A DNA stretch of 64,000 nucleotides from a virus (IMGVR_UViG_3300027374_000478:1-64000); one strand, 5' to 3'; positions 7,065 to 53,336 are shown, counted from the stretch's first letter. Program-made: numbers and translations. The notes: generated by a model from the letters alone, not told the origin.

Positions 7065-9232
7065 CTAAATCCTATATTTTCTCAGTGAACTTCCACCAGA
7101 CATTTCACCTACAGTCGCAGCCTGAATTGCACCCACAAAATTTTTATTATGCATCAAATCGTGTGGCACGCGCTCCATGAATTCATCGTAGTTCGTAACA
7201 TTGGGCAGATTCATGGTCAGGTGGATCTCATTATTAGCTACATTGTTATTCTTAATATTACTAATATTTTGCATTGCGGTTTTTAAGCTCTCTGCTCCGA
7301 GATTTCCTGCAATGTGAGTAGGTGATGTTGTTAATAATGTCCGAAGTGTTTCCATCTGCTTTTGACTAACGACCATATCTCCAGCACCTAACGGAGTAAG
7401 CACTGCGCCATCAGATTTTCTGATGATAGCCTCTGGCTTGTTGTTTTCCTGTGTCCATGCTAACTGGTCATGTGGGACATTCATCGTACCTTTAGCATAT
7501 CCTTTAAGCTGACTTAAGTTTACCCATCCTAAGTTGCCGCTTCCGTACTTTTTCCCAGTGCTGATATGGTAGGGCTTTTTAGCGCCTTTCTTAATCTTTG
7601 TAATATATACAGTGTCCCCTTTGTGTTTGTTTCCAGAAGAACCTGTACCATTACTGTTTTTAAAATAATTTCCACTTTTGTAAGTAACAATGTCGCCTAC
7701 TTCTGCTTTGCCGTTTGGTTTGTATTTTGGGTCATAAATTAAGTTGGTAGTAGCTTTCTTGGTAGGCGAGGTAGTGATTGGCTTTCCTACACCTGATAAC
7801 ATCGATGAAATATTGCTTGCCATATCATTCGATGCAGAACTTGAAGCATTATCAGAAAACACCTTCATGCTTGCAAGCGTATCCAACCGTGTGATCATGT
7901 TTTGGATATTTACATTTATTAATCCCAAGGTGTTATTTACGGTCGTAGCAGCAGACTCAATACCTGTCTGTAAATTATCGCCATAAGTAGTCAATACATT
8001 GGAAAGTTCCCCTGTGCTGGTATTCCAAATCTGCTCCATGGATGTTGATAAATCATAACCCACAGAATCAGCCTTTTCAGAAAGGGTAGTATTGATTGAT
8101 GATGCATTTTCGTTAATCTTTGCGATCATATCTGATATCAGCATTTCGATATCATCTAACCGCTTATTTAAGATTTCCTCATATTCATCATACAAGGTAT
8201 CAAGCATCTTTTTTTGGTCAGACACATATTTATCATATTCAGTTTCTTCCAGATTGTCTTTTGCTTCTTCCAGAGATACTTTATATTCCTGGATTTTGGC
8301 TTTAGCTTCTTCAGAATTGTCACCTTGGTAAGCGTCTAATATCTTCTGTAAATTAGCAATCTCTTTTGTCTGCTCTTTGACGCGCTTCTGATAGTCATAT
8401 AAATCCTTCTGTGCATCCAAGGCTTCTGTATAGGTGTCGATCAGCTCTCTCAAAGAATCCAGTTCTTTTTCAATTCCGTCTTCCACCATATCCTTGATCG
8501 CCTGTTTCTCGTCTTCGGCAGCGAGGATCATATCCTGTTGCAACTCAAGAAGTTCCTGTCTGCGTTCGACCAGTTCCTTGTCATATGGGTCTTCAGCAAT
8601 CTGTTTATCAAGATTATCTATTTCTTTATCATACCTGTCAGCTTGTGCCATGTACACATTGTAATTCATGCCGTGCAAGCCCATAGTAGTAAGCCCCTCG
8701 TTAGTGAGCTGTCCTTTGTCGTTATAAAGCTCCTCATTGCTCAAAAGCTCTGTAAGGAACTTGGATTCGTCTATGATATGGGAAATCTTGCCCTGTAGCA
8801 GATCAAATACTTCCCAACTGATATCACGTATGGAGTTGCCATATTGTATCATGGCTGTATTGGCTTCTTCAATTGAAAGGGTAACATCATCAATCTGGTT
8901 GCACATTTCGTACCAAGCTTCCGATTCTTTTTTAATAGCACCGCTGCTGACAGCTTCATTGAGTGATTTTGTCAAATCAGCTTTTTCTTTCTGAAGTTTA
9001 GAAATATTATTCCGCTCATTATCCATAAGAGCTTCATAGTATTTAATACTTACAATATATCCTTTTTCTTCAGCCTGTGTGATGGATTCATCAAGCATGT
9101 TCTTTTTATTCTCGATAATTGCCAAGATGCTATCATATTGTGATACAACATTATTGAAAGCTGTCTCGTATAATTCGCTAACCTTTTCATTCAGCTCCTC
9201 AACTGCATCACGGCAGTCTAACGCTTTTTCAT
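7065..9232 (-). CDS. Tape measure protein, exon 3
   Basis: Splice TGG T|AT GAA AAA GCG TTA GAC TGC gives QQWYEKALDC, in frame with ORF 7065..9125; coiled-coil plus C-terminal GYAKGT / AWTQE..PEAI motifs. Confidence 0.9.
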
Positions 9233-9399
9233 CATTGTCTTTACATAGTTCGCTACACTATGCGAGTTATCAAAACTCCCCATACTTTCATATGGCATGG
9301 GACTATATCTTCTATCTGTTAAATATTTTTGTGCATAATAAAAGAGCAGGAGAGTATTAATTTTCCTACTCTTTTTATTCTATCTAGTCAACTAAAGTC

Positions 9400-9921
9400 T
9401 CAATCATTCGCTTTATATGACAAAGCTAAATTTTCCATATCTTTAAAATCAATACATCTTTTTGCCAAATCACTATCCGGTTTATCATATTTATTATTAT
9501 AAACTTTTAAAGCAACTTTATCTAAATCCATTGTATTAATAACTTTTAATTCTGTTCGCATTAAAGATATGTATTTACTTTTTTCTTTTTCATTCTTAAA
9601 TGTTCTATGTTTGTCTAAATCCTTATATTGTAATTTATTATATATATTTTTAGGAATTGGGAACATATAGTTTAAATTGATTACAGCAATTAATCTATTA
9701 CTTTTTGGATCAAAAATTTTCTTAAAATCCTCATTGGCTTTCATTTTAAAATGCTTTTGTTTAGGATGAGATACTTGTGTAACATAATAGAAGTCATCAG
9801 TTTCAAACAATACTCCAAAAAATGGCTTATATTTATTATTTCCATAATCTGATTTTGGTATTCTGTTTTCTTTACTCCTAAGATAATTCAAATAATTTTC
9901 ATCAATGACAAGCCATTCCAT
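9400..9921 (-). CDS. toxN: Type III toxin-antitoxin endoribonuclease ToxN/AbiQ family
   Basis: YLNYLR...KPFFGVLF...YYVTQVSHPK...INLNYMFPIP motifs; preceded by repeat array and terminator. Confidence 0.88.
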   Translation of the reverse strand: MEWLVIDENYLNYLRSKENRIPKSDYGNNKYKPFFGVLFETDDFYYVTQVSHPKQKHFKMKANEDFKKIFDPKSNRLIAVINLNYMFPIPKNIYNKLQYKDLDKHRTFKNEKEKSKYISLMRTELKVINTMDLDKVALKVYNNKYDKPDSDLAKRCIDFKDMENLALSYKAND

Positions 9922-9947
9922 AATTTATCTCCTGTAAATTAACTTAT

Positions 9948-9974
9948 AAAAAGAGATAGTTTCCTATCTCTTTT
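9948..9974 (-). terminator. Intrinsic terminator between toxI and toxN
   Basis: AAAAGAGATAG-GAAA-CTATCTCTTTTT hairpin plus U tract. Confidence 0.85.
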
Positions 9975-9978
9975 CTAA

Positions 9979-10071
9979 ATTAATACGGTTTTATAGGCTC
10001 CGTAACCTCTATTAAGATAGTTTTAAGGTTCTATAACCTCTATTAATACGATTTTAAATGGATTCGTAACC
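9979..10071 (-). ncRNA. toxI: ToxI antitoxin RNA, ~3 diverged 30-32 nt pseudoknot repeats
   Basis: Units start at 9979, 10011, 10042; e.g. AGGU-UACGG-A-GCCU...CCGUA forms an H-type pseudoknot, with compensatory changes between units. Confidence 0.85.
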
Positions 10072-10106
10072 AGCTTAAATTGAAAACAATTTGTTTTCTT
10101 GAAGAT

Positions 10107-10135
10107 AGTATATGTTTAAAAAAACTGAATGTCAA
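10107..10135 (-). promoter_or_regulatory. Sigma-A promoter of toxIN
   Basis: TTGACA-17 nt-TATACT. Confidence 0.85.
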
Positions 10136-10589
10136 TACTTTTTATTGTTAAACTTTTATAAAATTTATTATTTTTTTATTAATAAAATGCTTTTTATCCT
10201 TTTATAATTATTTTGATCAATAGATTTTCTTTTTCAATCAGAACTTACATTTATTATATTATTTCTTTTTCATTTTAACAGATAGTCTATATTTTCGAAC
10301 TGCCAATCGCTTGCAGCCCTACATTAAGGCTTTCGCCGCCAATTTAGGCTAGTCTCTGAACGTCTTCCATCAGCATAACCCGTTAAGGAAGTTCGCTGCG
10401 TCTGGGTGACTTGCACACCCGGTTGCCCCTGGTCTGATTACTTTTTATGGTTTCTATCTGCTTGCACATGCAGACTGTAAGCTATAAGCCTATACCGCAT
10501 TCACGCTCACCGTTTCCAGTCACGTTGTAGCGAATCAGATATTATGGGGGTTCCCCGCAATAAAATAGATTAAGTGGCGTGAAAAATTC

Positions 10590-13500
10590 ACCACTGTTGA
10601 TATTCTTTGATTCTATTTGCTAGTTTCTCGTTTTTGATGGTGCTGATATCAATCTTACCTTCTCTAACTTTCTTGGTCAGAGATTTCCATGTTGACTTTT
10701 TATAACCATCATCTTTAGCTTTCTTGAGTGCTGTTTTATTTACTTTCGCAGCTTCCTGTTTATACCGTTTAAAACCCTTCTGTTGTATGGTGATTTCTTT
10801 GTTTACCTTGGAAAGCTCACTCTTGAGATTTTTGTTTCTGTCAGACCATGCTTTGTATGCACTGCTTGCTTTTAAGTCTAAGCTGTCTATTGCGCGTTCG
10901 ACACGATTGATTGCTACCTCAATCCAATCAAAAGCTTCTTTTGCTTTCTTAGCATCTTTTGTGGCTTGTTTAGATTTTTTGTTTGAAGTATTTTTACTTT
11001 TTGGAGTTGTTTTCTTTGTGGTCTTCTTCTTAGTAGTAGATGAACTCGCAAAAAGTTTGCGTCCACCATTCCTCGATGCATAAGCTGTACCCTCTAAATG
11101 GGCTGTGCCGCTTAATCTTGCTGCACCTCTGGATGGAGTAAAACCGTTCTTAAGTAATTCTTTGGTCTGCTTTGCGTTAAAAACTACAGATCCAGCAGGA
11201 ATATGAGAGAACTCAGCTCCGTTATCACCCACTGTCCACCAGCGATTGCCATACACTACCATTTCTTGACCCAATTCACCTGTTAAAGCATCTTCGCTTT
11301 TTTTGGTTTTCCAATTTGGATTTAACCACGTTTCGTCATCAAGTGTTCCATGTGCAAGAGCGCGTCTGGACAATTTGGGAATTGGATATAATCCGCCCGT
11401 CTTTTTTGATACTTCTTTTTGGCTAAGTGGGAGAGTAGTAGAGGTTTTATCTTTAACTGTTCCTTCTTTGTGAGCGGTTCCGTTTAATTGAGCTGTTGTC
11501 TTTACAAAACTCTTACTACCACCAAACGTTTTTAATGCATTTTTGACTTTATTAACTGCATTTGATACTGTATCTGAAACAGTCGCACTAATAGTTATCT
11601 TCTTGTCTTTTACTCCTGCTAATGCGTTCTTAGCTGACGTAGCTTTTGGAGTAACACCATCAGTAGCAGTCATATTTGTTTTGGTCTTCTTGGGAACCTT
11701 CTTTGTCTCTTTAACTACTTTTTTAGCAAGCCCAGACACATCATCAGAAGCTAAAAATTTTGTGATCTTTTCTTTTGGTATTCCTGTTATCTGTGATAAA
11801 ACAGTAGCTAATACACCAGAAGCACCGTCACTGGCATTGATTTCAGTAATTTTTTCTTCTGGTATTCCGCTGATTTCAGAAAGTACCTTGATTGTTGCGT
11901 CACTGGCTTTGTCTTCAGCTAATAGTTCAGTTATGATTTCTTTCGGGATTCCGGTAGAAATGGAAATCATACTTTCGAGTGCTGATGTAGCTTCATCATT
12001 AACCTTTGCGTTGATTTCTATATCTTTTGGGTCGATATCCAATATGTCTGCTATATCTTCTTTTGCCAATCCAGTAGATTCTTTAATAGCCTCAAATGCT
12101 TTGTCGGCTTCTTTTGACTTTAAGAAACTATCCCAGTCAACGGCCTTATTATCAGAGTAAGCATCCTGGAAAGCGTTTTGCAAGTCATAAATAGCAGATA
12201 TCTGGTCTTGAATTTTCGCACGGGCATTTTCATCTTTAACATCGCCAAATTTTGATTGTAAATCCTTAACCTTCTGAGACGCATTGGCATATCCTTTGCT
12301 TATAGACTCATCGTATCCCGTTTCCTTTTCACGTTTGTCCCTATATTCAGATTTCTTAGCGTTCAGAGCTGCTTTTTGTGTATTGTCTCCTTCGCTTGCC
12401 AATCTCTGCAACTGGTCTATCTCTGACTGAATTTGAGCCATACTGTATTCAAACTCGATATGAACAATCTGGTCTTCTGAAAGAGAAGATAAATCATCCT
12501 GGTACTTAGCGTACTCTTCATCCCAATTATTGATAAGTCCGTCAAGACGTTCCTTTCCAGCTCCCTCGCCCATGGAATCACGGAGAGATTTGATATTATT
12601 CAGGGTATTCTCATACCTTGTAATACTTTCTCCACTAAATGTCACATCATCCCACTCAAATCCATAGGATTCAAGATTGCGCAACAATGTTTCCGTAGCT
12701 TCAAGACTCATCTTCATTTTTTCTGCTGCTTCAGCAGTATTGTCGAACGTTCCCGTAAGCCCAGTTTCGTCTTCCTTTAACAGTCCTTTATCAATCAATG
12801 CATTCTGGAAGTTTGCAGCACTTCTTTTTGGATTTTCAGCATCAAAGAATTTCTTATATAGCTTTTCTGCGTCTTTGTATTTCTTTTCATAGACATCAGC
12901 AACATATTCAAGGTCGTCATTCTTTTTGAGTTCCTTTTTTACGCTGAATTTAGGGAGTACCCATTCAATAGACTTCTGTAGGTCGTCGGTTCCCCATTTA
13001 TCCTGTTTTGCAAGCTCTCTAGCCTGTGTAGCGTAATCGGCAAATTTTTTCCAGTCAGCATCTTTGTTTTCAGATTTAAAAGCTTCATCTACGTCTGACA
13101 GGGTAGTACCAAGTATACTAGCTTTTTCTTTTGCTTGTTCTGCTGAGTTTGCAACATTCTGGAAGTATTTGATGAAATTATCTTGTGACACTCCGATATC
13201 ATCAAGAGAAAGTCCCAGTTCTTTGAACTTACGGAGCGCATCTTCTGCATTTCCACTTTCGGCAACGATGTTGTTAAGATAATCTCCGATGGCATTTCCA
13301 GCAGTGGAAGAGAAGAAGGAGTCTAAGGATTTGAGTTCTTTTTCGGCGGGAAGCAACCCCATATTCCCGATTGCGTCATATGCAGATTTTACTTCGTTAA
13401 ATTCATCTTCAAATCCTTTTAACGCATCTAATCCTTCGCCATTTACAGAAACCGCTGACAATAATTTATCCAGGTCAACTTCTTTGCTATCTAAATCTTC

Positions 13501-14286
13501 TGTTAGTTTTTCGATTGCCGTATTATAGCTTTCAATATCTTTTTCTGACTGTTTCCATTCTTTTGATTTTGGATCAAGTTCAGACATAGATTTTTCTAAG
13601 TTGGAAATTTTATTTTCGTAATCTTCAATAGCAGCAATATTTTCTTTGACAGCAGTAGCAACATTAACATTACTGACCGTTCCCTGATAAGTCTTTTTGC
13701 CACCAGGAACTTGCTGTGCCACTTGTTGTGCTACAGATTGTTTCCCTCTATTTAATGCGTCTTTTGCATTGTAAGCAGCATCCTTTTGTTGAGATAAAGA
13801 TAATCTTTCTTTTATAGAAAGCTGAGATTCAAGTTTGCTGTTTGTTTCGGAAATTTTGTCAATTTCAACCTGATCTATTAATTGGATTTTTCCACTTTCG
13901 TTTAATTTTCCAATTTTCTCATCAATAGAGTCAATGCCACTTAAATCTACATTATATTTTTCTCCCAAAGATGAGAGGGTAGATTTGTATTCTTCTGCTT
14001 GAGATTTTAAGTTTTCTACCTCAGATTTTGTGCTATTTAGTCCATCTAAATGCTCTGATGTGTTTTTTATCGCAGAATCATAGGACAAGTTATACGCATC
14101 GGACAGTGCTTGTATTGCTTTGTACATTGCATAGGTTGTTCCAATGGTCGTTATTGCTTGACCTTTGAATGTGGACATAAAAGAACCTATACTTTTCCCA
14201 AGAGCATTAAAAGTTAATGATAGTGCGCTTTTGGTTCCTAATCCACTCTGAAAAATTGTAAATAGTTCAAATACTCTTTTAAACTG
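10590..14286 (-). CDS. Tape measure protein, exon 2
   Basis: ORF 10588..14178 stays open 36 codons upstream to CAG at 14286 (QFKRVFELF...); helical TMP repeats, ALTGELGQEMV and FDWIEV motifs. Confidence 0.88.
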
Positions 14287-14317
14287 CTATGAAGTAATGA
14301 TTATTTTTAAAAATTTG

Positions 14318-14346
14318 TTGGATAAATCTAAAAATAATGTTACAAT
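14318..14346 (+). promoter_or_regulatory. Putative sigma-A promoter of zinc-ribbon cargo gene
   Basis: TTGGAT-17-TACAAT with TG extension. Confidence 0.55.
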
Positions 14347-14363
14347 AAATCAGAGGTGATTTT

Positions 14364-14744
14364 ATGAATAGGTGTCCAAAATGTAATAAACAATTTTCTG
14401 TGGAAGTGAAGTTTTGCCCAATTTGCGGATACGAAAGTAATAATCAACAAAACGATACAGAATTTTATATTTGTCCTCAATGTCATATTGAGTATTCATA
14501 TAAAATAGACCACTGTACTAATTGTGGATATTGCACATCAAACTATAAAAATAAAATAAGAGATATTAATAATGAAAGCTTAAAGAAAGCAACAATTAAT
14601 ATTCCCATGTGTCCTACTTGTCAATCAACTAATATTCGAAAAATATCAGGAACTAAAAAGGTGACATCGATTATTGGGTTTGGAATATTGAGCGATAATA
14701 TTGGGAAAACTTTCGAGTGCTTAAATTGTAAATATAAGTGGTAA
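14364..14744 (+). CDS. Multi zinc-ribbon protein (intron cargo)
   Basis: Six CxxC pairs; C-terminal CPTCQSTNIRKIS...FECLNCKYKW. Confidence 0.75.
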   Translation: MNRCPKCNKQFSVEVKFCPICGYESNNQQNDTEFYICPQCHIEYSYKIDHCTNCGYCTSNYKNKIRDINNESLKKATINIPMCPTCQSTNIRKISGTKKVTSIIGFGILSDNIGKTFECLNCKYKW

Positions 14745-15094
14745 GATGAAATAAATCATGTTAAATAATGAAAACCAAACAAAGATCAAAAGGCTTTTGT
14801 TAAAAATAATTAAATTACCACAAATTATACATTCTTTCTTTACGAATGATGATTCTAAATCATACGTGATAATACGCAATTGTTATATTACTTTTTGTGA
14901 TTTTCATGTTAAAAGATAAAAGATGTTTTATTTATAAACTCGCATGATTTAGAATGTTTGGTAATAAATGATGTATTAGAATATAAAGTGAAATTATAGA
15001 AAACATATTCTGAATCCACAATCATCACTAATATTGTTGGATTATATGATAAAATGTGGTATTATAAGGAAAATATATATGTAGGTGAAGAGTA

Positions 15095-15649
15095 ATGGCA
15101 TTAGTAATTTGTCCAGAATGTAATAAACAAATGAGTCAATATGCAAAAAGCTGCCTTAACTGTGGATTTCCGATTCAAAAATTTATGAATGATAATAATA
15201 TGAATGATGAAACTAAAGCTTTTGTATGTCCAAAATGTGCAGATACTTATAAAATTAAAGGTGTTATATTTTTAAAGTGTGAATTTTGTAATACAACATT
15301 AGTCCAAACAGACATGAGTATCAAAGAGTTATTTCGATTTTCATGTAATAGTACAGATGAAGAATTTGAGTCTAAAGCAATTGAGTTAGCTAAAAAGTAC
15401 GGAGACAATCAATTTGATGAAAATGCTTATAATGAAACCAAACTTAAAAAGAAACAGCGTAATCTGAGCATGAGTTCATCGAATATAAATCAATCTCAAC
15501 AAGAAAATACACCCAAATGTCCTCTATGTGGATCGACTGCAATTACGGATGGTCAAAGAGGATATGCTTTGCTCACAGGATTCTTAGGAAGTAATAAAAC
15601 AGTAAATAGGTGTATTAACTGTGGATATAGTTGGAAACCTGGAAAATAA
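15095..15649 (+). CDS. Multi zinc-ribbon protein (intron cargo)
   Basis: MALVICPEC... and CPLCGS...CINCGYSW; promoter TTGGAT-17-TATTAT at 15037-15065. Confidence 0.75.
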   Translation: MALVICPECNKQMSQYAKSCLNCGFPIQKFMNDNNMNDETKAFVCPKCADTYKIKGVIFLKCEFCNTTLVQTDMSIKELFRFSCNSTDEEFESKAIELAKKYGDNQFDENAYNETKLKKKQRNLSMSSSNINQSQQENTPKCPLCGSTAITDGQRGYALLTGFLGSNKTVNRCINCGYSWKPGK

Positions 15650-15879
15650 AGTATCATGTCTTATCACAATAAAAAAATAATGATGTTTTACCATTAATGT
15701 GTATAATTTAACTTTGATGTTAATGGAAATATGTTGACCATTAACTATTTATGATTTGTTGGATATTCATTTATGCTTGATAATTTTCAAAATAAACATA
15801 TGTTTAATCTTAACAAATTGATGTGCATGTGATAGAATAATTTTATTATGTAACAATTACAAAAGATGGAGTATATAAT

Positions 15880-16338
15880 ATGTCAGATGCACAAAGCTAT
15901 ATTCAGTGGCTTAATAAAAAATTAAAATTAAATAATTATTCAGTTCAGAATAATGCCCAATTAATGAATTGGAAAATAAATAGAGGACAAATTTACACAT
16001 GCTTTCTTGGCGAAAATATTGGATTTGAAAAAAGTAGGATGGCAGCAAGACCATGTGTAATTATATCAACACAACGTATTAATCATGAAAGTGGTAATGT
16101 GATTGTAATTCCACTTTCAAAAAATATAAAATATGTACGTAGTACAAATAAATTAAAATATCCTTATCACTTTGTTTTAAAAAGATCCAAATATCCTAAA
16201 CTTCAATTTGATTCTGTCGTACAATGTGAAGATATACGTTGCGTGTCTAAAGCCAGGTTGTCGAAATATATTTGCAATGTCAAACCCGATGACATGAAAG
16301 ACATTAGGAAGAGATTGAAAAATGCTTTACAAATATGA
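15880..16338 (+). CDS. MazF/PemK-family endoribonuclease toxin, no adjacent protein antitoxin (intron cargo)
   Basis: RGQIY..LGENIGFE...RPCVIIS...VIVIPLS...DSVVQCEDIRCVSKARL. Confidence 0.88.
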   Translation: MSDAQSYIQWLNKKLKLNNYSVQNNAQLMNWKINRGQIYTCFLGENIGFEKSRMAARPCVIISTQRINHESGNVIVIPLSKNIKYVRSTNKLKYPYHFVLKRSKYPKLQFDSVVQCEDIRCVSKARLSKYICNVKPDDMKDIRKRLKNALQI

Positions 16339-16360
16339 CATATTATGGTATGATTAAAAC

Positions 16361-16546
16361 GTATAGAATATATTTGCTTACCTTATAGCCTACGAGATGC
16401 GTATTTATAATTTCCACTCTTATACATATAATTCTCGTGCGTTATTTGTTCGTAGGCCATTCGTTTAAAATTGTTTGAGAGTCCAAGTGATTCTCGCCGA
16501 AGTGATTATATGAAGAAAGGTAGGTTTAAGCCTATCTTTTTTCATA
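16361..16546 (+). ncRNA. Candidate sRNA downstream of mazF/pemK
   Basis: Own promoter TTTACA-17-TATGAT (16326-16354); stems GCCUACGA/UCGUAGGC and GAGAGUC/GAUUCUC; ends in hairpin 16508-16546. Confidence 0.55.
16508..16546. terminator. Probable bidirectional intrinsic terminator
   Basis: ATATGAAGAAAGGTAGGT-TTAA-GCCTATCTTTTTTCATAT between convergent genes. Confidence 0.7.
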
Positions 16547-16654
16547 TTCATACATAGCGGATGGACTGCGAAGCTTGTAATATAGAAGGTATATCATTAA
16601 ATAAGACTTACTGGTTATAGCATTTAGCTCTGCAATAACAGCAAAAATCAGAGC

Positions 16655-17947
16655 CTAGAATTGGCCCTGATCCTCAATTTCTTTACACAATTTTTCATAA
16701 TCATCATCGCCACTTAAAATATCTTCGGCAGTAAGCAATGTATCATACGCATGAGTAATTCCCTCTTCTTCATCATTTTCAAGATAATCCCTAGCTTCTT
16801 CCAATATTTCTGATTTATATTTTGAATATGCATTTGAATAATCAGTTTTAAATTCCTTTTTGTAAGAAGATTCATTTAAGTAATCGATGATATCTCTCCA
16901 TGCTTCCTTCTCTTCGAAATCTGAAATCTTATCAGATACAATGGTTTTATCTATTTTTTTAGATTGTTCGTCTATTTTATCATCATTACCGATTTTCTTT
17001 TTTAGCTCTGATAAAACTTTTTTAGCGGAATCATATTCCCTATCTTCCAAATAATCATTACTATCTGAAATTGCGTTGTTTATCATTTCGCTTTTTGCAT
17101 TTTTTAAAGTTGAAATATTGTCATTTTTCAAAGTTTCTTTTAACGAATTTATGTATTTATACAGTCCGTACCAATCTTCTTTATCCTTGTAAACAGATAT
17201 TTTATAAGAAACTTCTTTTTCATCTATATTTCTTGATTGTTCTGATATTTTTTTATCTTTCCCAACCAACTTTTTTGCTGAACTTAAAATTTTTCTTGCG
17301 CCATCGTACTCATGGCTCTCAATTTTTTGATTTGAATCTGATACCATATCAGACAAATAAGTATCTTTCGCCTGTGAATATATTTCCGATACTGTTTTAT
17401 CATTACCAAATACATCTTCATTAGAGTTAATATAGGCAATAACATCTTTTGGATCAGTTGTTTCAGTTAAAGAATATAATTCTTCACGTGCAGACACATA
17501 TGCTTGTTTATCCAAAAGCGTTTCGTTTTCAGGTAATTCTTTAAGTCCTTCCCTAATTAAACTCCTGGCTTTATTATAATTATTATTTTCAACTTCACTA
17601 TCTGTTTCAGTTACGATGTAAGACAAATATTGTTTTTTTGCAGATTCCAATAATTGCTCTTTATCGTCAACAACTCTGGAATCATCACTAATGCTCTCAT
17701 AATAACCTATAGCACTTAAATATTTACCTTCATTAATTGCATCATCCCCATTAGATTTTGCTTCTAAATCAGCATTATCTCGTTTTTCTTCTTCTGTAAG
17801 ATGTCTTTGAGATTCATATTTTTTTGGAAAAAAATCTAAATGTTCAATATTTACCGCAGTAAAACTGCCAAAGGCTATTAAACTGCCTATTAAAGTGATA
17901 GCAATTAAACCAGATAAAGGAAAGTTATTTTTGTTGTTATCGTTCAT
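16655..17947 (-). CDS. Membrane-anchored helical-repeat protein (intron cargo)
   Basis: N-terminal TM segment, repeated YDxAxKxL helical units, GGAGG RBS. Confidence 0.65.
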   Translation of the reverse strand: MNDNNKNNFPLSGLIAITLIGSLIAFGSFTAVNIEHLDFFPKKYESQRHLTEEEKRDNADLEAKSNGDDAINEGKYLSAIGYYESISDDSRVVDDKEQLLESAKKQYLSYIVTETDSEVENNNYNKARSLIREGLKELPENETLLDKQAYVSAREELYSLTETTDPKDVIAYINSNEDVFGNDKTVSEIYSQAKDTYLSDMVSDSNQKIESHEYDGARKILSSAKKLVGKDKKISEQSRNIDEKEVSYKISVYKDKEDWYGLYKYINSLKETLKNDNISTLKNAKSEMINNAISDSNDYLEDREYDSAKKVLSELKKKIGNDDKIDEQSKKIDKTIVSDKISDFEEKEAWRDIIDYLNESSYKKEFKTDYSNAYSKYKSEILEEARDYLENDEEEGITHAYDTLLTAEDILSGDDDYEKLCKEIEDQGQF

Positions 17948-18482
17948 AATTGCACCTCCTAGAAATATTTTTATATATTATAAACGTTTCTAGCCTAAAT
18001 GCAAGTATTAATCGAAAATTATTTGGACAAAAATAAAAAATATTTCTTGATATCATAACAGGTATATTTTACATCATATCTGGTCAGTTTATTGTATTTT
18101 TTATCTCTATTAAAAAATTATAATTTTATATCAAAACAATTCATTTCAAACAATAATCTTCTTTTTTCTTTTAAATCTACGTCTGCGTAATTCTAAGCTA
18201 TACCCGCCCCTCATTGAATACTCACCAATACTATCTTGTAGATTCTTGTCATCCGGCACACTCAAATCCCTTGCAGCAAACGTATCTATAGTGCGTTTCT
18301 TGATAATTCTATGCCCATTAGATTTTTTACTCCTTTAATACAAATTATTTCATCCCTACCCATTTCTTGACTCTATCCACCAATTTCTTATTCACAGACT
18401 GGTAGGTGATTTCGATTCTATCAAAATTTCAAACAAATGTTTAGACTATTATTATATTCCAAGAAGTGATAAAATTAATTTC

Positions 18483-18570
18483 GTAAGAAGTCGCATTGTG
18501 CAACTGCGACTGTTGCACTCTTACATAGTAACTATTAATTGTAGCCGTACAAAATGTAAGAAGGTACGGT
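18483..18570 (+). ncRNA. Structured leader with two pseudoknots / alternative pairings
   Basis: AGUCGCA/UGCGACU with loop GUGCAAC/GUUGCAC; UCUUACAU/AUGUAAGA with CCGUAC/GUACGG. Confidence 0.55.
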
Positions 18571-18661
18571 GAATCACCTCTTGGAAAATCAAAAACTTCA
18601 TAGTGGATTTCCCACAGTATTTTCCAAATTATTTTATTCTCTTACAGAAGGGAGGAAGACT

Positions 18662-18811
18662 GTGGATAAAGTCTTTGACATCTTTATGGCTCTTATTGGA
18701 CAAGTTCCTTGGTTTGTGTCAGGATATATCGTGTACAAGGTATATTCTAATAAACCAAAACACACATCCATAAGTATATCAGATAAGCTAACCATTGTAT
18801 CTGAAAGATAA
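18662..18811 (+). CDS. Small hydrophobic peptide (49 aa), type I toxin-like candidate
   Basis: GGGAGG RBS then GTG at 18662; hydrophobic stretch followed by basic residues. Confidence 0.5.
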   Translation: MDKVFDIFMALIGQVPWFVSGYIVYKVYSNKPKHTSISISDKLTIVSER

Positions 18812-18935
18812 TCAACACCATCTTTTGCCATTTGCTTGATTCATCAGGAGAGTAGGAGAGTAATCACCCAAACAAATACCCATGTCACACAACGGCATGG
18901 GTATTATCATCCATATTCAATTTTATACTATTCAT

Positions 18936-19109
18936 CTACGCATCCAGAACCATACACTGATACTTACCTTTATCAGAATAAATCTCTTTCAATTCCCTCA
19001 GAGTTTCCGCATTATTCCCATATACCTCATCATGGATTTGAGCATATAATCCTGATTTGTCGATGATTAAAAATCTCCATGTATCTTTCTTAAATGTTAC
19101 CTGTCCCAT
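18936..19109 (-). CDS. Small hypothetical protein (intron cargo)
   Basis: GGAGGG RBS before ATG at 19109 (MGQVTFKK...). Confidence 0.45.
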   Translation of the reverse strand: MGQVTFKKDTWRFLIIDKSGLYAQIHDEVYGNNAETLRELKEIYSDKGKYQCMVLDA

Positions 19110-19211
19110 AATGTACACCCTCCTGGATATCTTTAATGTTCTTTGATAAGGTAATGATATCATAATGGGTGTGTAAAAGTTTGGACAGTTGATTTTTAAT
19201 TACATATTATA

Positions 19212-19937
19212 TTAATAGCACACTTTACACGGACGCGATTTTGGGCAACTTGATTTTGAGCCTTTATAAATTGTACGTGAACGGCTCAATGTAGGACAAT
19301 TCTTTGTGCTATGATATACTTCACCACTAGGAACCCAATAAACAGTTTTCCCTACTTTATTACTACTTGATTTCTTTTTAGCCGAAACTTTAACAGTACA
19401 AGTTGCTTTTTTACCAGATTTCAGCAGGACTGTTATCTTGGCAGTACCTTTTTTCTTAGCCTTAATTTTGCCATTAGCTGTGACGGTTGCCACTTTTTTA
19501 TTATTGGACTTATATTTCTTAACGGAATCCCCTTTTGCGTATGATGTCTTTAATTTATAGGTTTTAGATACAGCTAATTTAATTGTTTTTTTAGATAATT
19601 TTATGTATGGTTTTAATTTAGGAACAACACTTGTTTGTGTAGCTCCACACATCCAGCATTCCCGCTCTTTTAATCCTGTAGCATTAATTGTTGCAGATTT
19701 TGTCTGTTCCCATAAATCCCAATTATGTTTGCCAGTGGCAGAAATCTTCTGTTCCTCTTCTTTATTACATAAGTAACAATATCTATATTCGCTGCCATCA
19801 GTTCCGCAATCAGATTCTCTATATACAATCCAATCACTCCAATTATGATTACAAACATCTTCTGCAAATACTTGCAGAGGGAAAAGTGTTGCCATAATCA
19901 TCACAATTAACAGGTTACATAATTTTTTCTTCATCAC
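19212..19937 (-). CDS. Secreted protein with Cys/His repeats, bacterial Ig-like (Big_2) domain and C-terminal Zn-binding motif (intron cargo)
   Basis: Signal peptide; YKSNNKKVATV..NGKIKAKKKGTAKITV; YHSTKNC...PCKVC. Confidence 0.75.
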   Translation of the reverse strand: MMKKKLCNLLIVMIMATLFPLQVFAEDVCNHNWSDWIVYRESDCGTDGSEYRYCYLCNKEEEQKISATGKHNWDLWEQTKSATINATGLKERECWMCGATQTSVVPKLKPYIKLSKKTIKLAVSKTYKLKTSYAKGDSVKKYKSNNKKVATVTANGKIKAKKKGTAKITVLLKSGKKATCTVKVSAKKKSSSNKVGKTVYWVPSGEVYHSTKNCPTLSRSRTIYKGSKSSCPKSRPCKVCY

Positions 19938-20099
19938 AACTCCTCCTTAGTAAACATGTTAAAAATATTATACCATAGTGTTGTGATTCGTTCTATAGAA
20001 ATTGATTATTTAGACATAATAAAAGGGCAGGAGAGTGGCGAATTTCTCTGATTGCTCTTTCTTCTTTTGTTTTCTCTGAACCATATATTTGATTTTTCT

Positions 20100-20273
20100 T
20101 TATAAAACTAGAAAACTGCCATACTTAATAGCATGACAGTTTTCTAGAACTCATGTGTAGATTCATGGTTACACCAATCATCTACTAAATCTCCTTTATC
20201 CTTTCGTATGTTTCAAGGTTACACCTTTACCAAACGAATATCATCACTTCAAGGTTACACCTTTATTGATGAT
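20100..20273 (-). ncRNA. DUF3800-associated sRNA with three repeated stem-loops
   Basis: Promoter TTGAAT-17-TATAAT (20280-20308); repeats at 20162, 20212, 20248; terminator 20108-20147. Confidence 0.65.
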
Positions 20274-20311
20274 AAAGAGATTATAACATATTCTTGCCAA
20301 TAATTCAACAT

Positions 20312-21040
20312 TTATAAAATATCTTTAAAACCGATTATTTTTTCAAGATCGTCTCTTGCATGATATAATTTTTGATAAAATATATCTCCAAGTCCAAAAA
20401 AGCCTTTATTAAACTTGATTTTTCGAATCAATAAAGACGGTGACATGTCTGAAATTTGAAGTCCAATACAGTTATCTTCCTTATATATGAATCCTAACGA
20501 AGATAAATGTTGTTGAATGATTGTTGAAGAATTATATAAAGATCCTCTTGTTATATAGTCATAGTAGGAATTTTGCAAATATGAATTTTCTTTTAAGGTT
20601 CTTGATTCTATACAAATTTGCCCAATTGCGTTTTTATTACGTAAAAAATGAACAATATTATCCAACAGAGAAATAAAAGCAATATCATAACTATTGTATG
20701 AAGTTTTTAAATACAATGAAGTCATGATTGATTGCTCAAAATATACACCTATGGATGTAAAATTAAGAGTTTTTAATATGTTTTCATATTCTATCCAAAA
20801 GCTTACACGTAATTCACTATCTTCTTGAAATATTTTAAATTTATTTTTACTTTTTTTCATATCAGTAAAATGAAAAATAATATCTGTAGACTGAAAATAT
20901 TTTCTTTTTAAAGTAACAATATCAGGTATTGCTTTTGTTACATATTCATCTTTTGAAATTATTATTCCTGACATGCAAAAATATGGATTTTGATTTTTTA
21001 CAGGTTTTGTTTCGTCAAGAAAAATTAAATATTCATCCAA
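20312..21040 (-). CDS. DUF3800-family protein (intron cargo)
   Basis: N-terminal IFLDET, FHFTDM, C-terminal GLQISD motif. Confidence 0.8.
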   Translation of the reverse strand: MDEYLIFLDETKPVKNQNPYFCMSGIIISKDEYVTKAIPDIVTLKRKYFQSTDIIFHFTDMKKSKNKFKIFQEDSELRVSFWIEYENILKTLNFTSIGVYFEQSIMTSLYLKTSYNSYDIAFISLLDNIVHFLRNKNAIGQICIESRTLKENSYLQNSYYDYITRGSLYNSSTIIQQHLSSLGFIYKEDNCIGLQISDMSPSLLIRKIKFNKGFFGLGDIFYQKLYHARDDLEKIIGFKDIL

Positions 21041-21704
21041 AATAGCTTCCTCCTTAGTACAAATACTATTGAGTATTATACAATAGAGTTCACTATATTT
21101 CTATAAAATCAAAATAAATAAATGCAATCGGATTAATTAAATACCCCTGTCAAGACCAAACAGCATTAAGGACACACTTCTTAAAAAGCGATCCGAAGAT
21201 TATATTGGTTAACGACTCTTAACATAGCCGTCCTATCATCGCACGAGATAGAAGACCGTTCCAACATTAAGGATTGCGAATCCTAGTGGATTACCACCAT
21301 TTTGTTATTTTACCTTGGACTATACATTATAAGCAAATACAATAAGGTCTGTATTTACTCAGAGGATCGGTAGTCTCTGAACATCCCCCTATATCATAAT
21401 GATATATTGGTGTGCTGCTGATTAGTTAATCGGTTGCAATAACAACATACAACCTTTGCCCTTATTCTAGGTACTTAGGAGCATCGTCCCGATGCCTTTT
21501 ATTTCACCTTATACCATCTCATTAATTTTTTCTGCTTTCGCTGCATATCACGCTTACCATTTTCAGATTACGTTGTAGCTTAATGAGCATTAGGCTTCCC
21601 AGTCAAGTTACTCCTCCAGTTTTAGAACATGACACCACACAATTGTACATGATACCATATTTGTCATTTCCTTTTGTGTAGATTAGACCAGTTTAATAAA
21701 ACAA

Positions 21705-23609
21705 ATCTAGGTTCCTGAATAATTTAATACCGCCAATAGTGGCGAATAGTGTAGGTAATGCGCCTCCGACATCTATAATTTTTGTTAATACATTTAAAAA
21801 TTCTGATCCTGTATCAATCGCACCTTTTAAGAAGTCAGAATTAAATGCAACATTTGAAAATTCTTGGAACTGACTGCGGAACTGCTGGATTTTTGCTTCC
21901 ATACTTTGCATCCATCGGTCTTGTTCCTTTTGAGCTGAACCTTCAGCATTTAAAGTCGCTTCATAAGCTTTTTGTATTTGTCCGGATTTAAAAGCCTGTA
22001 AAATAGCGGCACCTTGATTACCTCTGTTTTTACCGAACATGGTTTCAAGCAAATCAGCTTGTTCTGTTTGTTCCAAATTGTCATATACTTTTGAAACGTC
22101 TTCTAATATATCATAGTAATCTCTAAACTTAGTTGAATCAGCAGAATCCATTATGTTGACTTGACCCTTTGTGAGATTTAAAATGTGCGTTTGAATTTTG
22201 CTGACAGATTCTAAGCCGTCCGATTCTTCGCCTAGAGCTTCCAGATCGCCCTTCATACCTTGAATGCGCATCTGTCCAATTTTTAAAGCATTACCAAGTT
22301 CTCCAGCAGATTGTGTGATTTCTGATCCGCCCGTTAATAAAGCTAACGCCTTGTTTAAATCAGTTCCACCTAAAGATAGCATGGATGCAGCATGTGACAT
22401 TCCTTCGCCCAAATCTTTAGCTGATGTCGCAAATTCATTTCCAAGTTTATTATATTTATCTACAATAGACAAAGCATTATCATAACTAATGTCATAAGCT
22501 TTCATGACAGTTACTAAGTCACTTACAGCGGTTTTGTCATCGACTTCGCCAACATTAGAATAAATAGAGCTTATTTTGGAAAGTCTTGCACTTTGCTCCA
22601 TAGTGTAGCCAAGTTTTGCCCATTCGCTAGTTTGCGTTATATATGATGACATGTCTCGTCCGATTGACTTAGAGATATTTCCGGCATTATTCAGAAAATC
22701 ATTATATTTAGATGTGGTTTCATCTGTAACCTTATACAAATTGGTCATAGCAGTATCAACACTTAACACTTCATTTGCCATTTGTTTCAATACATAGGGT
22801 ATTCTCTGGATAGCCCCATAAGTAAGTGCAAATTGCCCAATCTGTTTAAATCCACGATTCATTTCTGCAAAAAAACTTTTCCCATTCAATCCCTGGGAAG
22901 AAATAGTAGATTTTAAGTTTTTGAATTCATTGTCAAGTTTAGCTTTATCGGCAACAGTTGTAGCTTGTCTATATCGATTTTCTAAATCTTTTAATTCTAT
23001 TCCGTATTTTTTAACAGCTTTAGAATTATCTTCATAATATTTCTTTACTGCATTTGCCGAACGTTCTGCCACTCCGATATCAAGTGTTTTTGACCCTGTG
23101 TTACGGATTTGTGTCATTATATTATCAAATCTTTCTGCGGCCAGCGTCATATCATTAAAAGAATTTACAAACTCTTTATTATCAAGTTTAAATGAATTGT
23201 TAGAATCAAAATGTGCTTTTATCTTACTGAGTGTAGAATTGTATGCTTCAGCTTCTTTTCTGGCGGCTTTTACTAAATCAGAATCCTGTCCACTATATCC
23301 AGAAAGCTTATTTTTCATGACAGATGATTTTGCGTCATAAGCCCCATTTAAAATTTTATGTTGAGCATTAGAAATTATTTTTGAATACATTTCGGCTTGT
23401 TTTGTTGAAGACCTTATAGAATTATTGGCGGCGTTTTGTATTTGTCTTCCTATATTATCAACATTAAGATTCCTAAAACCTTTGTCATCAAATTTTATCT
23501 TAATTGTTTTATTATTAAGACTATTGATTTTATTTTCTATTTGTGTTAATTTTTCAAAACCTAGTAGTTTGGCGTGTATGTTAACATTATAATCTGCCAA
23601 AACATTCAC
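21705..23609 (-). CDS. Tape measure protein, exon 1 (TP901-type core)
   Basis: VDTAMTNLYKVTD...EWAKLGY...LGNEFAT...GNALK; ends FRNLD at the 5' splice site; start may be TTG 23600. Confidence 0.92.
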
Positions 23610-23665
23610 CTCGCTTTTTCAATAAAAAAAAGAGAGGGTATTCCCTCTCTATATAATTTCAATAT

Positions 23666-34730: not shown

Positions 34731-34908
34731 ATTTCCGATACCTCCTTTATAATTAGTGCGAGTTGGACATATGCCCAAAACCAACCCACGGTATCCCATT
34801 TATATAAAATCAGGAAGAGGGCAGTGGGTATCTGCTTTTCGTGAGCGACACTATCTTCCTGATTTTAAGCATAAAAATAGACAGTGTCTTTTCTAATATC
34901 CAAAAGGA

Positions 34909-42807: not shown

Positions 42808-42876
42808 AACACATAGAAAGAGTCGGACTTTCATTTTCGAGTGGAATCGAATGTCTTGCCGTTGGACGATATGTGT
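42808..42876 (-). pseudogene. Degenerate tRNA-Gly(TCC)-like element
   Basis: Cloverleaf ACACAUA/UAUGUGU, D arm, stem UUCGA/UCGAA with 6-nt loop UUCCAC, T arm GAAAG-UCCGACU-CUUUC. Confidence 0.5.
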
Positions 42877-51299: not shown

Positions 51300-52307
51300 T
51301 TACAAAATCGCTTTGGGGGAACTTTTTTTAGAAAAATTGATACTATACACGCAAATTTCTCCTTTTTTATCCTCGTATAAAAAAGTATTAATTTTATCAT
51401 ATTGATTCAATATGTTGGTTAATATTTCATTCTTGTAATTAAATAAAATATAAAATAATAAATTTTTAATTGATGAATTCTCCACATTATCTAAACGTTG
51501 TAGTAAACGATACATTGTATGGGAATTAATTTTCATTCGATCAATCTCATATAATAATTCCATTTTTGCACGATTTCTGTAATAATATTGATATTCATAA
51601 AAAGATGGATTATATGATATCATTTTTATATAATCAGATGTTTCATTTGCCAGACGAATTATTTTAACAACTTGTTTTTTGTTAACTAAATTTTTATCGA
51701 ATTCTTTTGGTTTAAAGATATCTGCTAATGGGATGAAATTACTTCCCATAGATTTTTTTGATCGTTTTTTGGCAATACAATTATGAAGATAGTCCATGCT
51801 GGTATTATATTTTTGATAATCTTTTCGATTAACATTTTTATAATTCTTAGTATCTGCAATAAACCCCAAGAAATATGGAGTCCGCTTTCTCCCATCAGGT
51901 GTAGTCAATAAGTTCTCATATTTCTTTCTCATCCGTTTCAGTTCTTTTGTAGTATCTACAGGATATTCCTTTTTTGCTTTATCTATTTCAATATTACTCA
52001 TAACATCCAACTGACATACATCATAATATATTTCTTTGATATCATCATATTGTTCTTGTACGGATTGTCCAGATTTTGACACTATATCCCATAGCAATGA
52101 ATTAAGTTCTTGTGATAGATTTACGATTTCACCAATTTTATTATTACTTGTTTTATCATCTAAGTCAGCCAAATCAGTAGGAGTATAATGCCTTTTTGAT
52201 TTTGGAGGATTTATATTGCGTGTTGGAACCTTGAATATATGGTAATTCTTTTTCGCTGAATCAATCAATATCTTATTATCTGTAATAAGCAAAGTATCGC
52301 TGTCAAA
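51300..52307 (-). CDS. YonO-like single-subunit RNA polymerase, exon 2
   Basis: Begins FDSDTLLITDN after terminal G 52308; IGEIVNLSQ, EIDKAKK motifs. Confidence 0.85.
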   Translation of the reverse strand, partial: FDSDTLLITDNKILIDSAKKNYHIFKVPTRNINPPKSKRHYTPTDLADLDDKTSNNKIGEIVNLSQELNSLLWDIVSKSGQSVQEQYDDIKEIYYDVCQLDVMSNIEIDKAKKEYPVDTTKELKRMRKKYENLLTTPDGRKRTPYFLGFIADTKNYKNVNRKDYQKYNTSMDYLHNCIAKKRSKKSMGSNFIPLADIFKPKEFDKNLVNKKQVVKIIRLANETSDYIKMISYNPSFYEYQYYYRNRAKMELLYEIDRMKINSHTMYRLLQRLDNVENSSIKNLLFYILFNYKNEILTNILNQYDKINTFLYEDKKGEICVYSINFSKKSSPKAIL

Positions 52308-53336
52308 CCTTTGTACCCTCGGTTTCCCGATATTTATTAGGGGAGTAGACTATCTCTTCATCCTCTAAAAGAGGAGGTTGGCACTTCCCAATAAGCATTT
52401 CATCTTATCAGTAAAGATTTCATAGACTGTTCTAGTCAGTATATCCTAGTCGTTACACCTTCAAACACATCCCTGTGTAAGCTTGGCACGGTATCTTCAT
52501 ATGGTTTATTGAAATTTAGGCTATTTTCTTATAAAAATGTTTTAAGTATTTCTTATTTTTATTAGATGCAATAATAATATTGCTCCTAATTGAATCTATA
52601 TTAGCTTTTGTAAAATTATTATCTATTAAATATTCTGCACAAGCACCAATCCATCCAAATGTATCAATGTAATTCATTTCTTCATCGTATAATTCTATTT
52701 TTACAGCACGACCATTTTGTTGTGCAGGTCTACTTAATTTTTCTTTTGCTATATTTGGATTATTTTTGTAAAATTCAGATAATGAATGGTTTCCATAATT
52801 AGGATTATTCCTACCATTAAAATCACGTTGTTTATATCTTCCGTTATTTGAACTGTGTTGGATATTTTCCTGATGTGTGCACCATTCTAAATTATCAACT
52901 CGATTATTTTTTCTATTAAAATCAATATGATTGACCTCTGATTTATTTTCTGGATTTGGTATATAATGTCTTGCTACGAGAATATGTATACCTAAAGTTT
53001 TATTATTACCATTTTTACTTAACGTTACAGTATGATATCCATCAGAATTTATTTTAGGGGTTTTAATTATGCCTTTTCTAAACTGAGAAATGCCATCCTT
53101 CCTAGTAATTATTCTGTCCATACTTTTAACTCTACCTAAATTACTTACTTGATACAAACCTTCATAATCTTTAATATTTTGCCAAATTTCTGTTACTATA
53201 ATATACTCCTCCGTATTATAAACCACTTAGATTTTTACCGTTAGCAGATAAGAGCCTACCTTATCCACACCTTATATTTATAAGTTCACCAACTTTATTT
53301 TGAGGATGTTACCATCCAAAGCAGACTATATGGTTA
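52308..53336 (-). mobile_element. Group I intron (1029 nt) with homing endonuclease in the RNAP catalytic motif
   Basis: P1 GCAGAU/GUCUGC; R GUGUAACGACUA 52447-52458; S AAGAGAUAGUC 52348-52358; removal gives SGAD|FDSD. Confidence 0.92.
52516..53226 (-). CDS. NUMOD4-HNH homing endonuclease (intron-encoded)
   Basis: EIW..IKDYEGLYQVSNLGRVKS; VNHID..RKNNRVDNLEWCT..EN..H. Confidence 0.92.
   Translation of the reverse strand: MVYNTEEYIIVTEIWQNIKDYEGLYQVSNLGRVKSMDRIITRKDGISQFRKGIIKTPKINSDGYHTVTLSKNGNNKTLGIHILVARHYIPNPENKSEVNHIDFNRKNNRVDNLEWCTHQENIQHSSNNGRYKQRDFNGRNNPNYGNHSLSEFYKNNPNIAKEKLSRPAQQNGRAVKIELYDEEMNYIDTFGWIGACAEYLIDNNFTKANIDSIRSNIIIASNKNKKYLKHFYKKIA

Follow-up and report, generated by a model that had tools for sequence, protein, structure and literature searches.

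The first 64,000 nucleotides (nt) of the provirus record IMGVR_UViG_3300027374_000478, referred to here as the window, contain on the minus strand between 7065 and 23609 what is, by sequence comparison, one tape-measure protein (TMP) gene of ~2,520 codons with two related group I introns inside. Both introns carry promoter-bearing cargo, and in the larger of the two this cargo is laid out on both strands. A sequence-only reading of the same DNA had suggested that the layout provides self-immunity, with the excised introns supplying extra ToxI and antisense RNA against plus-strand toxins during the phage's own lytic cycle. We cannot tell whether the strand layout serves self-immunity. It is more simply explained, with a probability that we place at about 0.55, as insulation of the late operon and of the ribozyme core from promoters active in the lysogen, combined with shared descent, or else as a neutral by-product.

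A tape-measure gene with two predicted group I introns

Three minus-strand open reading frames (ORFs), 23609..21693, 14178..10588, and 9125..7065 (638, 1196, and 686 aa), are pieces of one TMP. Exon 1 (21705..23609, minus strand) carries a Pfam PhageMin_Tail domain (PF10145, E value of 1.1e-16) and aligns with the TMP profile phrog_4211 at positions 493-942 (9e-79), with its homology ending at ...NLD, while exon 3 (7065..9232, minus strand) matches positions 2108-2612 of the same profile and is 70-74% identical to the C-terminal parts of two homologues, P0004 and P0005. The profile has 2625 positions, and the 1196-aa middle piece fills the gap between the two matches. A full scan with exon 2 (10590..14286, minus strand) returned 1443 homologues, and the unannotated fecal phage MT835469 encodes an uninterrupted TMP of 2722 aa that can be aligned across the exon 2/exon 3 boundary. 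Many gene calls for exon 2 begin and stop exactly at the exon ends, and because many homologue gene calls end or begin exactly at the two intron sites, both sites are taken to be often occupied in this phage family.

The position of intron 1 follows from comparison with the uninterrupted homologue P0112. In the window and in the related loci L009 and L012, exon 1 loses its coding homology after NLD, which is the same boundary as in P0112, and coding homology of exon 2 begins at [S/Q/R][L/F]K in nine loci, with a G directly before it in all nine. In P0112, NLD is contiguous with SLK: alignment of the exon 1 tail runs up to residue 104 (3e-19), that of the exon 2 heads from loci L005 and L006 starts at residue 107 (5e-35 and 4e-55), and SLK corresponds to QFK in the window, which gives the spliced junction NLD|QFK. 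Because exon 1 and exon 2 homology abut in P0112 and a G precedes exon 2, intron 1 is placed at 21704..14287 (minus strand, 7,418 nt).

Other arrangements of this region were considered and rejected. Gene calls that begin with MSLK would make exon 2 a separate gene with its own start, but the M residues are TTG or ATG codons whose last base is the splice-site G, a start codon is absent from this position in three loci (the codon preceding the homology is a stop in two and UCG in one), and a Shine-Dalgarno sequence was found in none. A small hidden TMP exon in the intron 1 cargo, searched for with the linker regions of fused homologues, returned no significant matches and is unnecessary given the contiguous junction in P0112. 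The motif adjoining exon 2 in L007 was tried as P7' and overlaps the first exon 2 codons.

For intron 2, uninterrupted homologues (P0004, P0005, P0033, P0047, and others) place the final exon 2 residue exactly one residue apart from residue 10 in the frame of exon 3, within a junction of the form ...EW-(Y/H)-EKALDC.... Cuts after U10590 and after G9233 give ...QQW-Y-EKALDC..., with a W-Y-E equal to that of P0033, and as these cuts restore the W-Y-E of uninterrupted homologues, intron 2 is placed at 10589..9233 (minus strand, 1,357 nt).

Both introns have the P, Q, R, and S elements, a P1 helix with U.G at the splice site, a P7 pairing, and a terminal G; P3, which forms the pseudoknot, was read by eye only. 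On these features, both elements are very probably group I introns. In intron 1, P1 consists of 5 bp (21709..21705 with 21688..21684), the core from P1 to P9 spans 21704..21260, and the first ~445 nt past the 5' splice site hold R, P8, S, and the P9 hairpins. A cargo loop of ~6.9 kb is closed by a 7-bp long-range helix between 21266..21260 and 14322..14316, the latter ~30 nt before the 3' splice site and its terminal G at 14287. The closing helix is also present in L009, L012, L014, and L007 (five loci with the window), in three different compensated variants, and RNAalifold, applied to four homologous intron 1-type cores, gave 91 pairs, 23 of them with compensatory changes and with P7 invariant. 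Core and closing-helix pairs are kept by compensation among phages whose TMPs are only 35-55% identical. In intron 2, P1 consists of 6 bp (10595..10590 with 10578..10573), in which the splice-site U at 10590 pairs with G, and R lies at 10361..10350, P7' at 9305..9301, and the terminal G at 9233. Between R and S, a perfect 12-bp stem (10285..10274 with 9323..9312), assigned as P8, surrounds the cargo, and the toxIN cassette described below therefore sits in the predicted P8 loop.

The two introns had been described as relatives, and the comparison bears this out. Exactly two identical copies of the 12-nt R element are present in the window (10361..10350 and 21382..21371, minus strand, ~230-320 nt past the end of a TMP exon), and an extension in the P5 region is common to both introns and can be aligned between them, with a 33-nt match in the gap between the split nrd coding sequences of Enterococcus Kochikohdavirus phages. 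This 33-nt intron stretch was the sole match in a megablast search against phage records.

Further copies of the P5-extension motif were observed outside the TMP gene. One is located at 51503, inside the downstream piece of a candidate polymerase gene of the same phage. Another lies in the jumbo Shewanella phage FishSpeaker (L002), where a 37-nt stretch at 2501-2537, just upstream of the gene for an RNA polymerase beta subunit, matches the P5 extension at 97% and suggests the same intron family there.

Cargo of the introns and its orientation

The cargo of intron 2 is a toxIN cassette on the minus strand, sense to the TMP pre-mRNA. Its upstream part (9952..10135) comprises a sigma-70 promoter at 10135..10107 (11/12 match), toxI repeats at 10057..9979 with a 31-nt period and 2.5 copies, and an attenuator between toxI and toxN, formed by a hairpin and U-run at 9971..9952. 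The downstream part (9335..9921) comprises toxN (9921..9400) and its terminator; the product is assigned as a ToxN/AbiQ endoribonuclease by a full-length match to Pfam ToxN_toxin (PF13958, 2e-42) and by PADLOC AbiQ (1.6e-17), and it has 411 homologues. The region from promoter to attenuator is nearly the same as the sequence upstream of toxN homologues that lie outside introns. A toxI-type repeat region is retained upstream of toxN homologues in L018 and L022, and the closest ToxN relatives (89% and 69% identity), one located beside ArdA in the leading region of a mobile element and the other in a metabolic neighborhood of a chromosome, have toxI regions almost identical to the intron copy, repeat number included.

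Among the related TMP loci sampled, toxN is absent from all, and phage records hold three distant ToxN matches only, too few for an orientation survey. In L006, the intron 2 scaffold is 93% and 91.5% identical on the two sides of the P8 loop, and the cargo is another cassette of ~500 nt. Because sampled relatives have no toxN, the L006 scaffold holds another cassette, and non-intron copies are nearly identical, toxIN is read here as a single, recent, unmodified autonomous cassette inserted in intron 2. The sense orientation of such a lone insertion has even prior odds, and the insertion displays no adaptation to the intron context. The P8-loop cassette of L006 (L006:5023-5526) itself lacks a called ORF and has a promoter of the extended -10 type together with an RNA that ends in a terminator.

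The ~6.9-kb island of intron 1 is divided into blocks on opposite strands. Past the core, the sense block (minus strand) contains a DUF3800 gene (20312..21040; Pfam PF12686, 9.4e-12), homologues of which are sense in L011 and L003; a small RNA with three hairpin repeats (20108..20308), running from a promoter at 20308..20280 to an 18-bp terminator at 20147..20108; a gene for a secreted, Cys-rich Big_2 (Ig-like) protein with its own ribosome-binding site and signal peptide (19212..19937; Pfam Big_2, 3.5e-9); and, at the end of the block, a protein of 430 aa, anchored in the membrane at its N terminus, with helical repeats and without significant family match, followed by a terminator at 16676..16642 (16642..17947 in all). 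Next to the 3' splice site, the antisense block (plus strand) contains the gene of Zn-ribbon protein 1 (14364-14744) with a promoter at 14319-14346 (14316..14744 in all), that of Zn-ribbon protein 2 (15095..15649), both with Pfam Zn-ribbon matches and the second also with a match to phrog_2546 (1.1e-11), and, at its end, a mazF/pemK toxin gene (15880-16338; PemK_toxin PF02452, 1.6e-20) with a promoter-like site at 16326-16354 and a terminator near 16520-16545 (15880..16545 in all). A small hydrophobic ORF at 18569..18811, putatively coding and without a family match, is likewise on the plus strand. The two blocks converge, with their terminators near 16545 and 16642 lying ~100 nt apart. In the Zn-ribbon 1 promoter, the -35 box coincides with the 3' strand of the closing helix, where it is conserved and covaries with its helix partner in relatives.

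The strand assignments made earlier were reproduced throughout: toxI and the DUF3800-linked repeat RNA (10057..9979 and 20308..20108, both minus strand) are sense to the TMP pre-mRNA, and mazF, both Zn-ribbon genes, and the small peptide ORF, all on the plus strand, are antisense to it. No MazE/PemI-type antitoxin ORF was found between 15649 and 15880 or downstream of mazF, the upstream neighbor of which is a Zn-ribbon gene both here and in L009, and a weak, partial mazE-like phrog match lies inside mazF itself. The Zn-ribbon proteins, which belong to a family widespread in Bacillota phages, gave no toxin signature in family and defense profile searches. In gathering and E-value scans against Rfam, the DUF3800-linked RNA had no match, and neither a ToxI family nor a DUF3800 motif was detected. 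The DUF3800 genes of L003 and L011 also have, directly 3', a near-consensus promoter and a terminator-ended small RNA (L003:4344-4640; L011:2005-2209), and no sequence relationship links the three RNAs.

A 22-nt element, 95% identical between 9334-9355, at the 3' end of the toxN cassette, and 20015-20036, beyond the terminator of the DUF3800-linked RNA, is also retained at the boundary of the L006 cassette, and it may represent a cassette junction or a shared terminator.

Related loci (L005-L015) were compared in metagenome contigs of up to 214 kb and in one Lachnospiraceae genome (L010). An island of 4-8 kb is present at the intron 1 site of TMP in related phages (eight loci), with variable content that includes XRE-type helix-turn-helix (HTH), DUF723, DUF2513, Spo0A_C, YbjQ, PemK, DUF3800, and Zn-ribbon genes. 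In all related loci, the Zn-ribbon homologues (~14 copies in total) are antisense, a mazF homologue with 74% identity is antisense in L009, and DUF3800 is sense in L011 and also in L003, in the latter case without an intron around it and upstream of a TMP gene that is uninterrupted. By position, the gene adjoining the 3' splice site is antisense in all ten loci, and the first gene past the core is sense in five of five. Random cargo orientation across homologues had been named as an outcome that would refute self-immunity; the orientation found is non-random, with Zn-ribbon and mazF genes antisense and DUF3800 sense, and this regularity does not point to self-immunity specifically.

Two observations on these relatives may be added. 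Upstream of exon 2, four tandem Zn-ribbon paralogues in antisense orientation (L010:8011-9846) are present in the prophage of Lachnospiraceae bacterium CE91-St61, with a fifth downstream (14486-15088). Other interruptions of the TMP region comprise a DUF723 gene in the PhageMin_Tail region (L014:3878-6230), an IS605-type TnpB with an HTH gene (L011:8442-11001), and an integrase gene just upstream of TMP (L007:954-2030).

Transcription through the introns

Intrinsic terminators on the sense strand lie inside the introns at 20147..20108, 16676..16642, 9971..9952, and 9371..9335, and a further one is located directly upstream of the TMP start, at 23650..23631. Because of this last terminator, the late operon must read through terminators anyway. 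A candidate YonO-type single-chain RNA polymerase is encoded on the minus strand at 51300..55175, in two pieces with an HNH endonuclease ORF between them (53226..52516; phrog_59, 7e-44). The 613-aa ORF of this candidate (55175..53334) matches phrog_8308 (7e-73), a profile of 847 positions whose function is not annotated, its ESM Atlas neighbors (0.98-0.99) carry PF05183 RdRP, a YonO-related two-barrel family, in 21-68% of members, and the annotation of one distant homologue, from a phage, reads RNA-dependent RNA polymerase. Searches of the 613-aa ORF against Pfam, NCBIfam, and PDB sequences gave no matches, and a DFDGD-type motif was not found in a six-frame search of the genome. The earlier statement that the phage has its own RNA polymerase is thus only partly borne out, by the phrog_8308 match and the PF05183-bearing neighbors and not by the Pfam, NCBIfam, and PDB searches; that the phage encodes a YonO-type polymerase is plausible, not established. 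YonO transcribes the late genes of SPbeta as one operon, lacks the flap used in hairpin termination, and in SPbeta does not shut off host transcription (PMC5467207). A polymerase of the YonO type would explain passage of the intron terminators and of the terminator at 23650..23631.

The candidate polymerase gene itself appears to be split by a third intron, to which the HNH endonuclease ORF would belong.

Explanations for the strand layout

In the explanation that we favor, the introns of the essential late TMP gene would serve as cargo bays, the genes of which are expressed from their own promoters in the lysogen. Cargo on the side of the core would read inward on the sense strand and cargo on the side of the 3' splice site inward on the antisense strand, and the blocks would end at the back-to-back terminators near 16545 and 16642, with the result that no sigma-70 cargo promoter fires outward, be it into exon 2 and on to the tail genes or back across the ribozyme core. 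In the lytic cycle, either a late polymerase insensitive to terminators, for which the YonO-type protein is a candidate, or an antiterminated host polymerase would read through, and splicing would remove the cargo. Late transcription through both introns would necessarily yield toxI-containing transcripts as well as antisense RNA for mazF and both Zn-ribbon genes, which could be regarded as unavoidable by-products of read-through. It is conceivable that extra ToxI helps to quiet the phage's own ToxN, and such an effect would be unneeded to explain the layout.

Several observations weigh against this explanation or against the gene model beneath it. Insulation was deduced from orientation alone, and the orientation counts are not independent, as related loci share ancestry. 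The toxIN cassette is sense, adjoins exon 3, and is shielded only by its own terminator, so the inward-facing arrangement is not a universal rule. Given the sense-strand terminators in both introns, a full-length pre-mRNA depends on putative antitermination. For the introns themselves, P1 of the intron 1 type is shorter (3-5 bp) in some relatives, e.g., L012 and L014, and both introns fall below the threshold of the Rfam group I model RF00028, with no match at E<=1 or E<=10. In a control, RF00028 gave weak matches to two introns of the Enterococcus phage nrd gene and missed the third, which is the one related to the TMP introns, and because this relative was missed too, the Rfam result is taken as a limitation of the model.

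The proposal of full self-immunity holds that cargo orientation was selected. RNA-antitoxin modules would be sense and protein toxins antisense, so that late intron RNA gives extra ToxI and DUF3800-linked RNA together with antisense RNA against the mazF, Zn-ribbon, and peptide genes, and induction would neutralize the phage's own abortive-infection systems, which stay armed against foreign phages in the lysogen. The strand geometry is as claimed, each cargo family has a constant orientation in relatives, and a candidate phage polymerase is present. Moreover, escape from ToxIN by phages that express ToxI-like RNA is among the cases cited in PMC5772629, and as ToxI is short-lived (PMC5772629), a reduction of host transcription by the phage would call for ToxI from elsewhere. 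However, toxN is also sense, and read-through would boost the toxin mRNA too; toxIN is one recent, unmodified cassette, not in the sampled relatives; and sense is simply the default strand of a genome in which the long ORFs of the window are nearly all on the minus strand. In toxin-antitoxin (TA) modules with a stable toxin, blocking transcription or pairing the module RNAs usually frees the toxin, and silencing such a module or sequestering its RNAs would accordingly be expected to release the toxin and not to disarm it. The Zn-ribbon proteins lack a toxin signature, duplexes with antisense transcripts would expose the TMP pre-mRNA to cleavage, and TMP is late whereas ToxI decays within minutes (PMC5772629). 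For RNAs associated with DUF3800, which have no known function, both orientations with respect to the gene are described (PMC5737381). The self-immunity idea is partly implausible, and in this strand-coded form we consider it very unlikely.

A more restricted proposal retains the toxI arm only, such that the sense toxIN, as part of a late-polymerase transcript, would maintain ToxI when sigma-70 transcription drops, and the antisense block would not be disarming. It fits with a ToxI half-life of 3-4 min and with a passive activation model based on the arrest of transcription (PMC5772629), the attenuator comes after two to three toxI units, which would provide more antitoxin units than toxin ORFs per read-through transcript, and the 12-bp P8 stem could hold the ribozyme together despite ToxN cuts in the loop. 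It is nonetheless doubtful, as there is a single instance of an intron-borne toxIN, the repeat number is the same as in non-intron copies, a polymerase that ignores the attenuator would tilt the ratio to toxN, YonO of SPbeta leaves host transcription on (PMC5467207), and the timing of late transcription is unfavorable. Alternatively, there might be no read-through and no late cargo RNA, with transcription stopped at the internal terminators and a prophage that is defective or that makes TMP as separate or trans-spliced pieces. The strong sense terminators listed above, the 7.4-kb length of intron 1, an in-frame ATG at 14178, and the provirus class in IMG/VR would agree with this. Against it, the three exons are open over ~2,520 codons, compensation in core and closing helix persists across phages with TMPs only 35-55% identical, coding homology extends 36 codons upstream of that ATG to the terminal G without a Shine-Dalgarno sequence, and the terminator at 23650..23631 must be passed in any case, which makes an absence of read-through highly improbable. 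Insulation with shared descent, or a neutral by-product, is hence preferred here for the conserved layout.

Relation to known systems

The TMP introns share with other phage group I introns (T4 td, nrdB, and sunY/nrdD; SPO1; Twort; Kochikohdavirus nrd) a ribozyme in an essential phage gene, the P, Q, R, and S elements, the U.G in P1, the terminal G, cargo in a peripheral loop, and, with the Enterococcus phage nrd intron, a 33-nt identity. The remote position of the 3' splice site relative to the core is also a feature of T4 sunY. In contrast to these introns, the cargo is not a homing endonuclease but toxIN with promoter and terminator in one case and a 6.9-kb, two-strand, multi-gene island in the other. 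Intron 1 is also far longer than classical phage introns, one strand of its closing helix doubles as a -35 box, and both introns lie below the RF00028 threshold.

The cargo families are themselves known. As in ToxIN/AbiQ type III TA systems, there is a ToxN-family toxin with upstream tandem RNA repeats, an attenuator, and its own promoter, whereas the repeat unit is 31 nt here and 36 nt in Pectobacterium, and the cassette is phage-owned and lies inside a ribozyme loop. The self-immunity idea uses the same principle as PhiTE-type escape, as cited in PMC5772629, in that more ToxI RNA neutralizes ToxN. With MazEF/PemIK type II TA systems, the island shares the PemK/MazF domain, but no MazE/PemI-like gene precedes it and the neighbor is a Zn-ribbon gene. 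Membership in the group of DUF3800 genes with an associated structured RNA (Weinberg et al. 2017) is only possible: the DUF3800 domain is present and a promoter-driven, terminator-ended RNA adjoins the gene, but the RNA sequences are unrelated among the window, L003, and L011, and no Rfam DUF3800 motif matched. Prophage morons and defense hotspots, which have their own promoter and terminator and are often opposite to the late operon, are similar as autonomous cassettes expressed in the lysogen, with variable content at a fixed site and with TA and exclusion-type genes; here, however, the hotspot is inside an essential coding sequence and would be made harmless by splicing rather than by an intergenic position.

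A literature search, which was not exhaustive, found no report linking group I introns to ToxN or defense cargo. What is new is the combination, conserved in a phage family, of an essential late gene with ribozyme loops whose cargo comprises several genes, runs on both strands, and brings its own promoters. If the introns splice, ribozyme loops in an essential structural gene could be exchangeable cargo sites for TA and accessory genes, up to an island of 6.9 kb, which would extend the range of cargo known for group I introns past homing endonucleases and would allow accessory genes to reside in coding sequence without cost to the protein. The arrangement also raises the question of how a temperate phage avoids triggering its own abortive-infection modules upon induction. 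Self-immunity, if true, would be a new regulatory principle, and it is now one of several readings of the conserved orientation pattern.

Genome context

Of the 159-kb provirus record in IMG/VR, the window covers the first 64 kb, with a G+C content of ~30%. Searches of IMG/VR for related loci with exon 2, with an alignment, and with a 90-aa piece gave no matches. A complete Lachnospiraceae genome contains a related prophage, and the host of this ~159-kb temperate gut phage is probably a member of the Lachnospiraceae.

Elsewhere in the window, the sites 42808-42876, 34797-34861, and 28559-29674 include a tRNA-like gene with a two-base anticodon loop, as called by ARAGORN, together with an int-alpA RNA match (41 bits) and a class-V aminotransferase gene.

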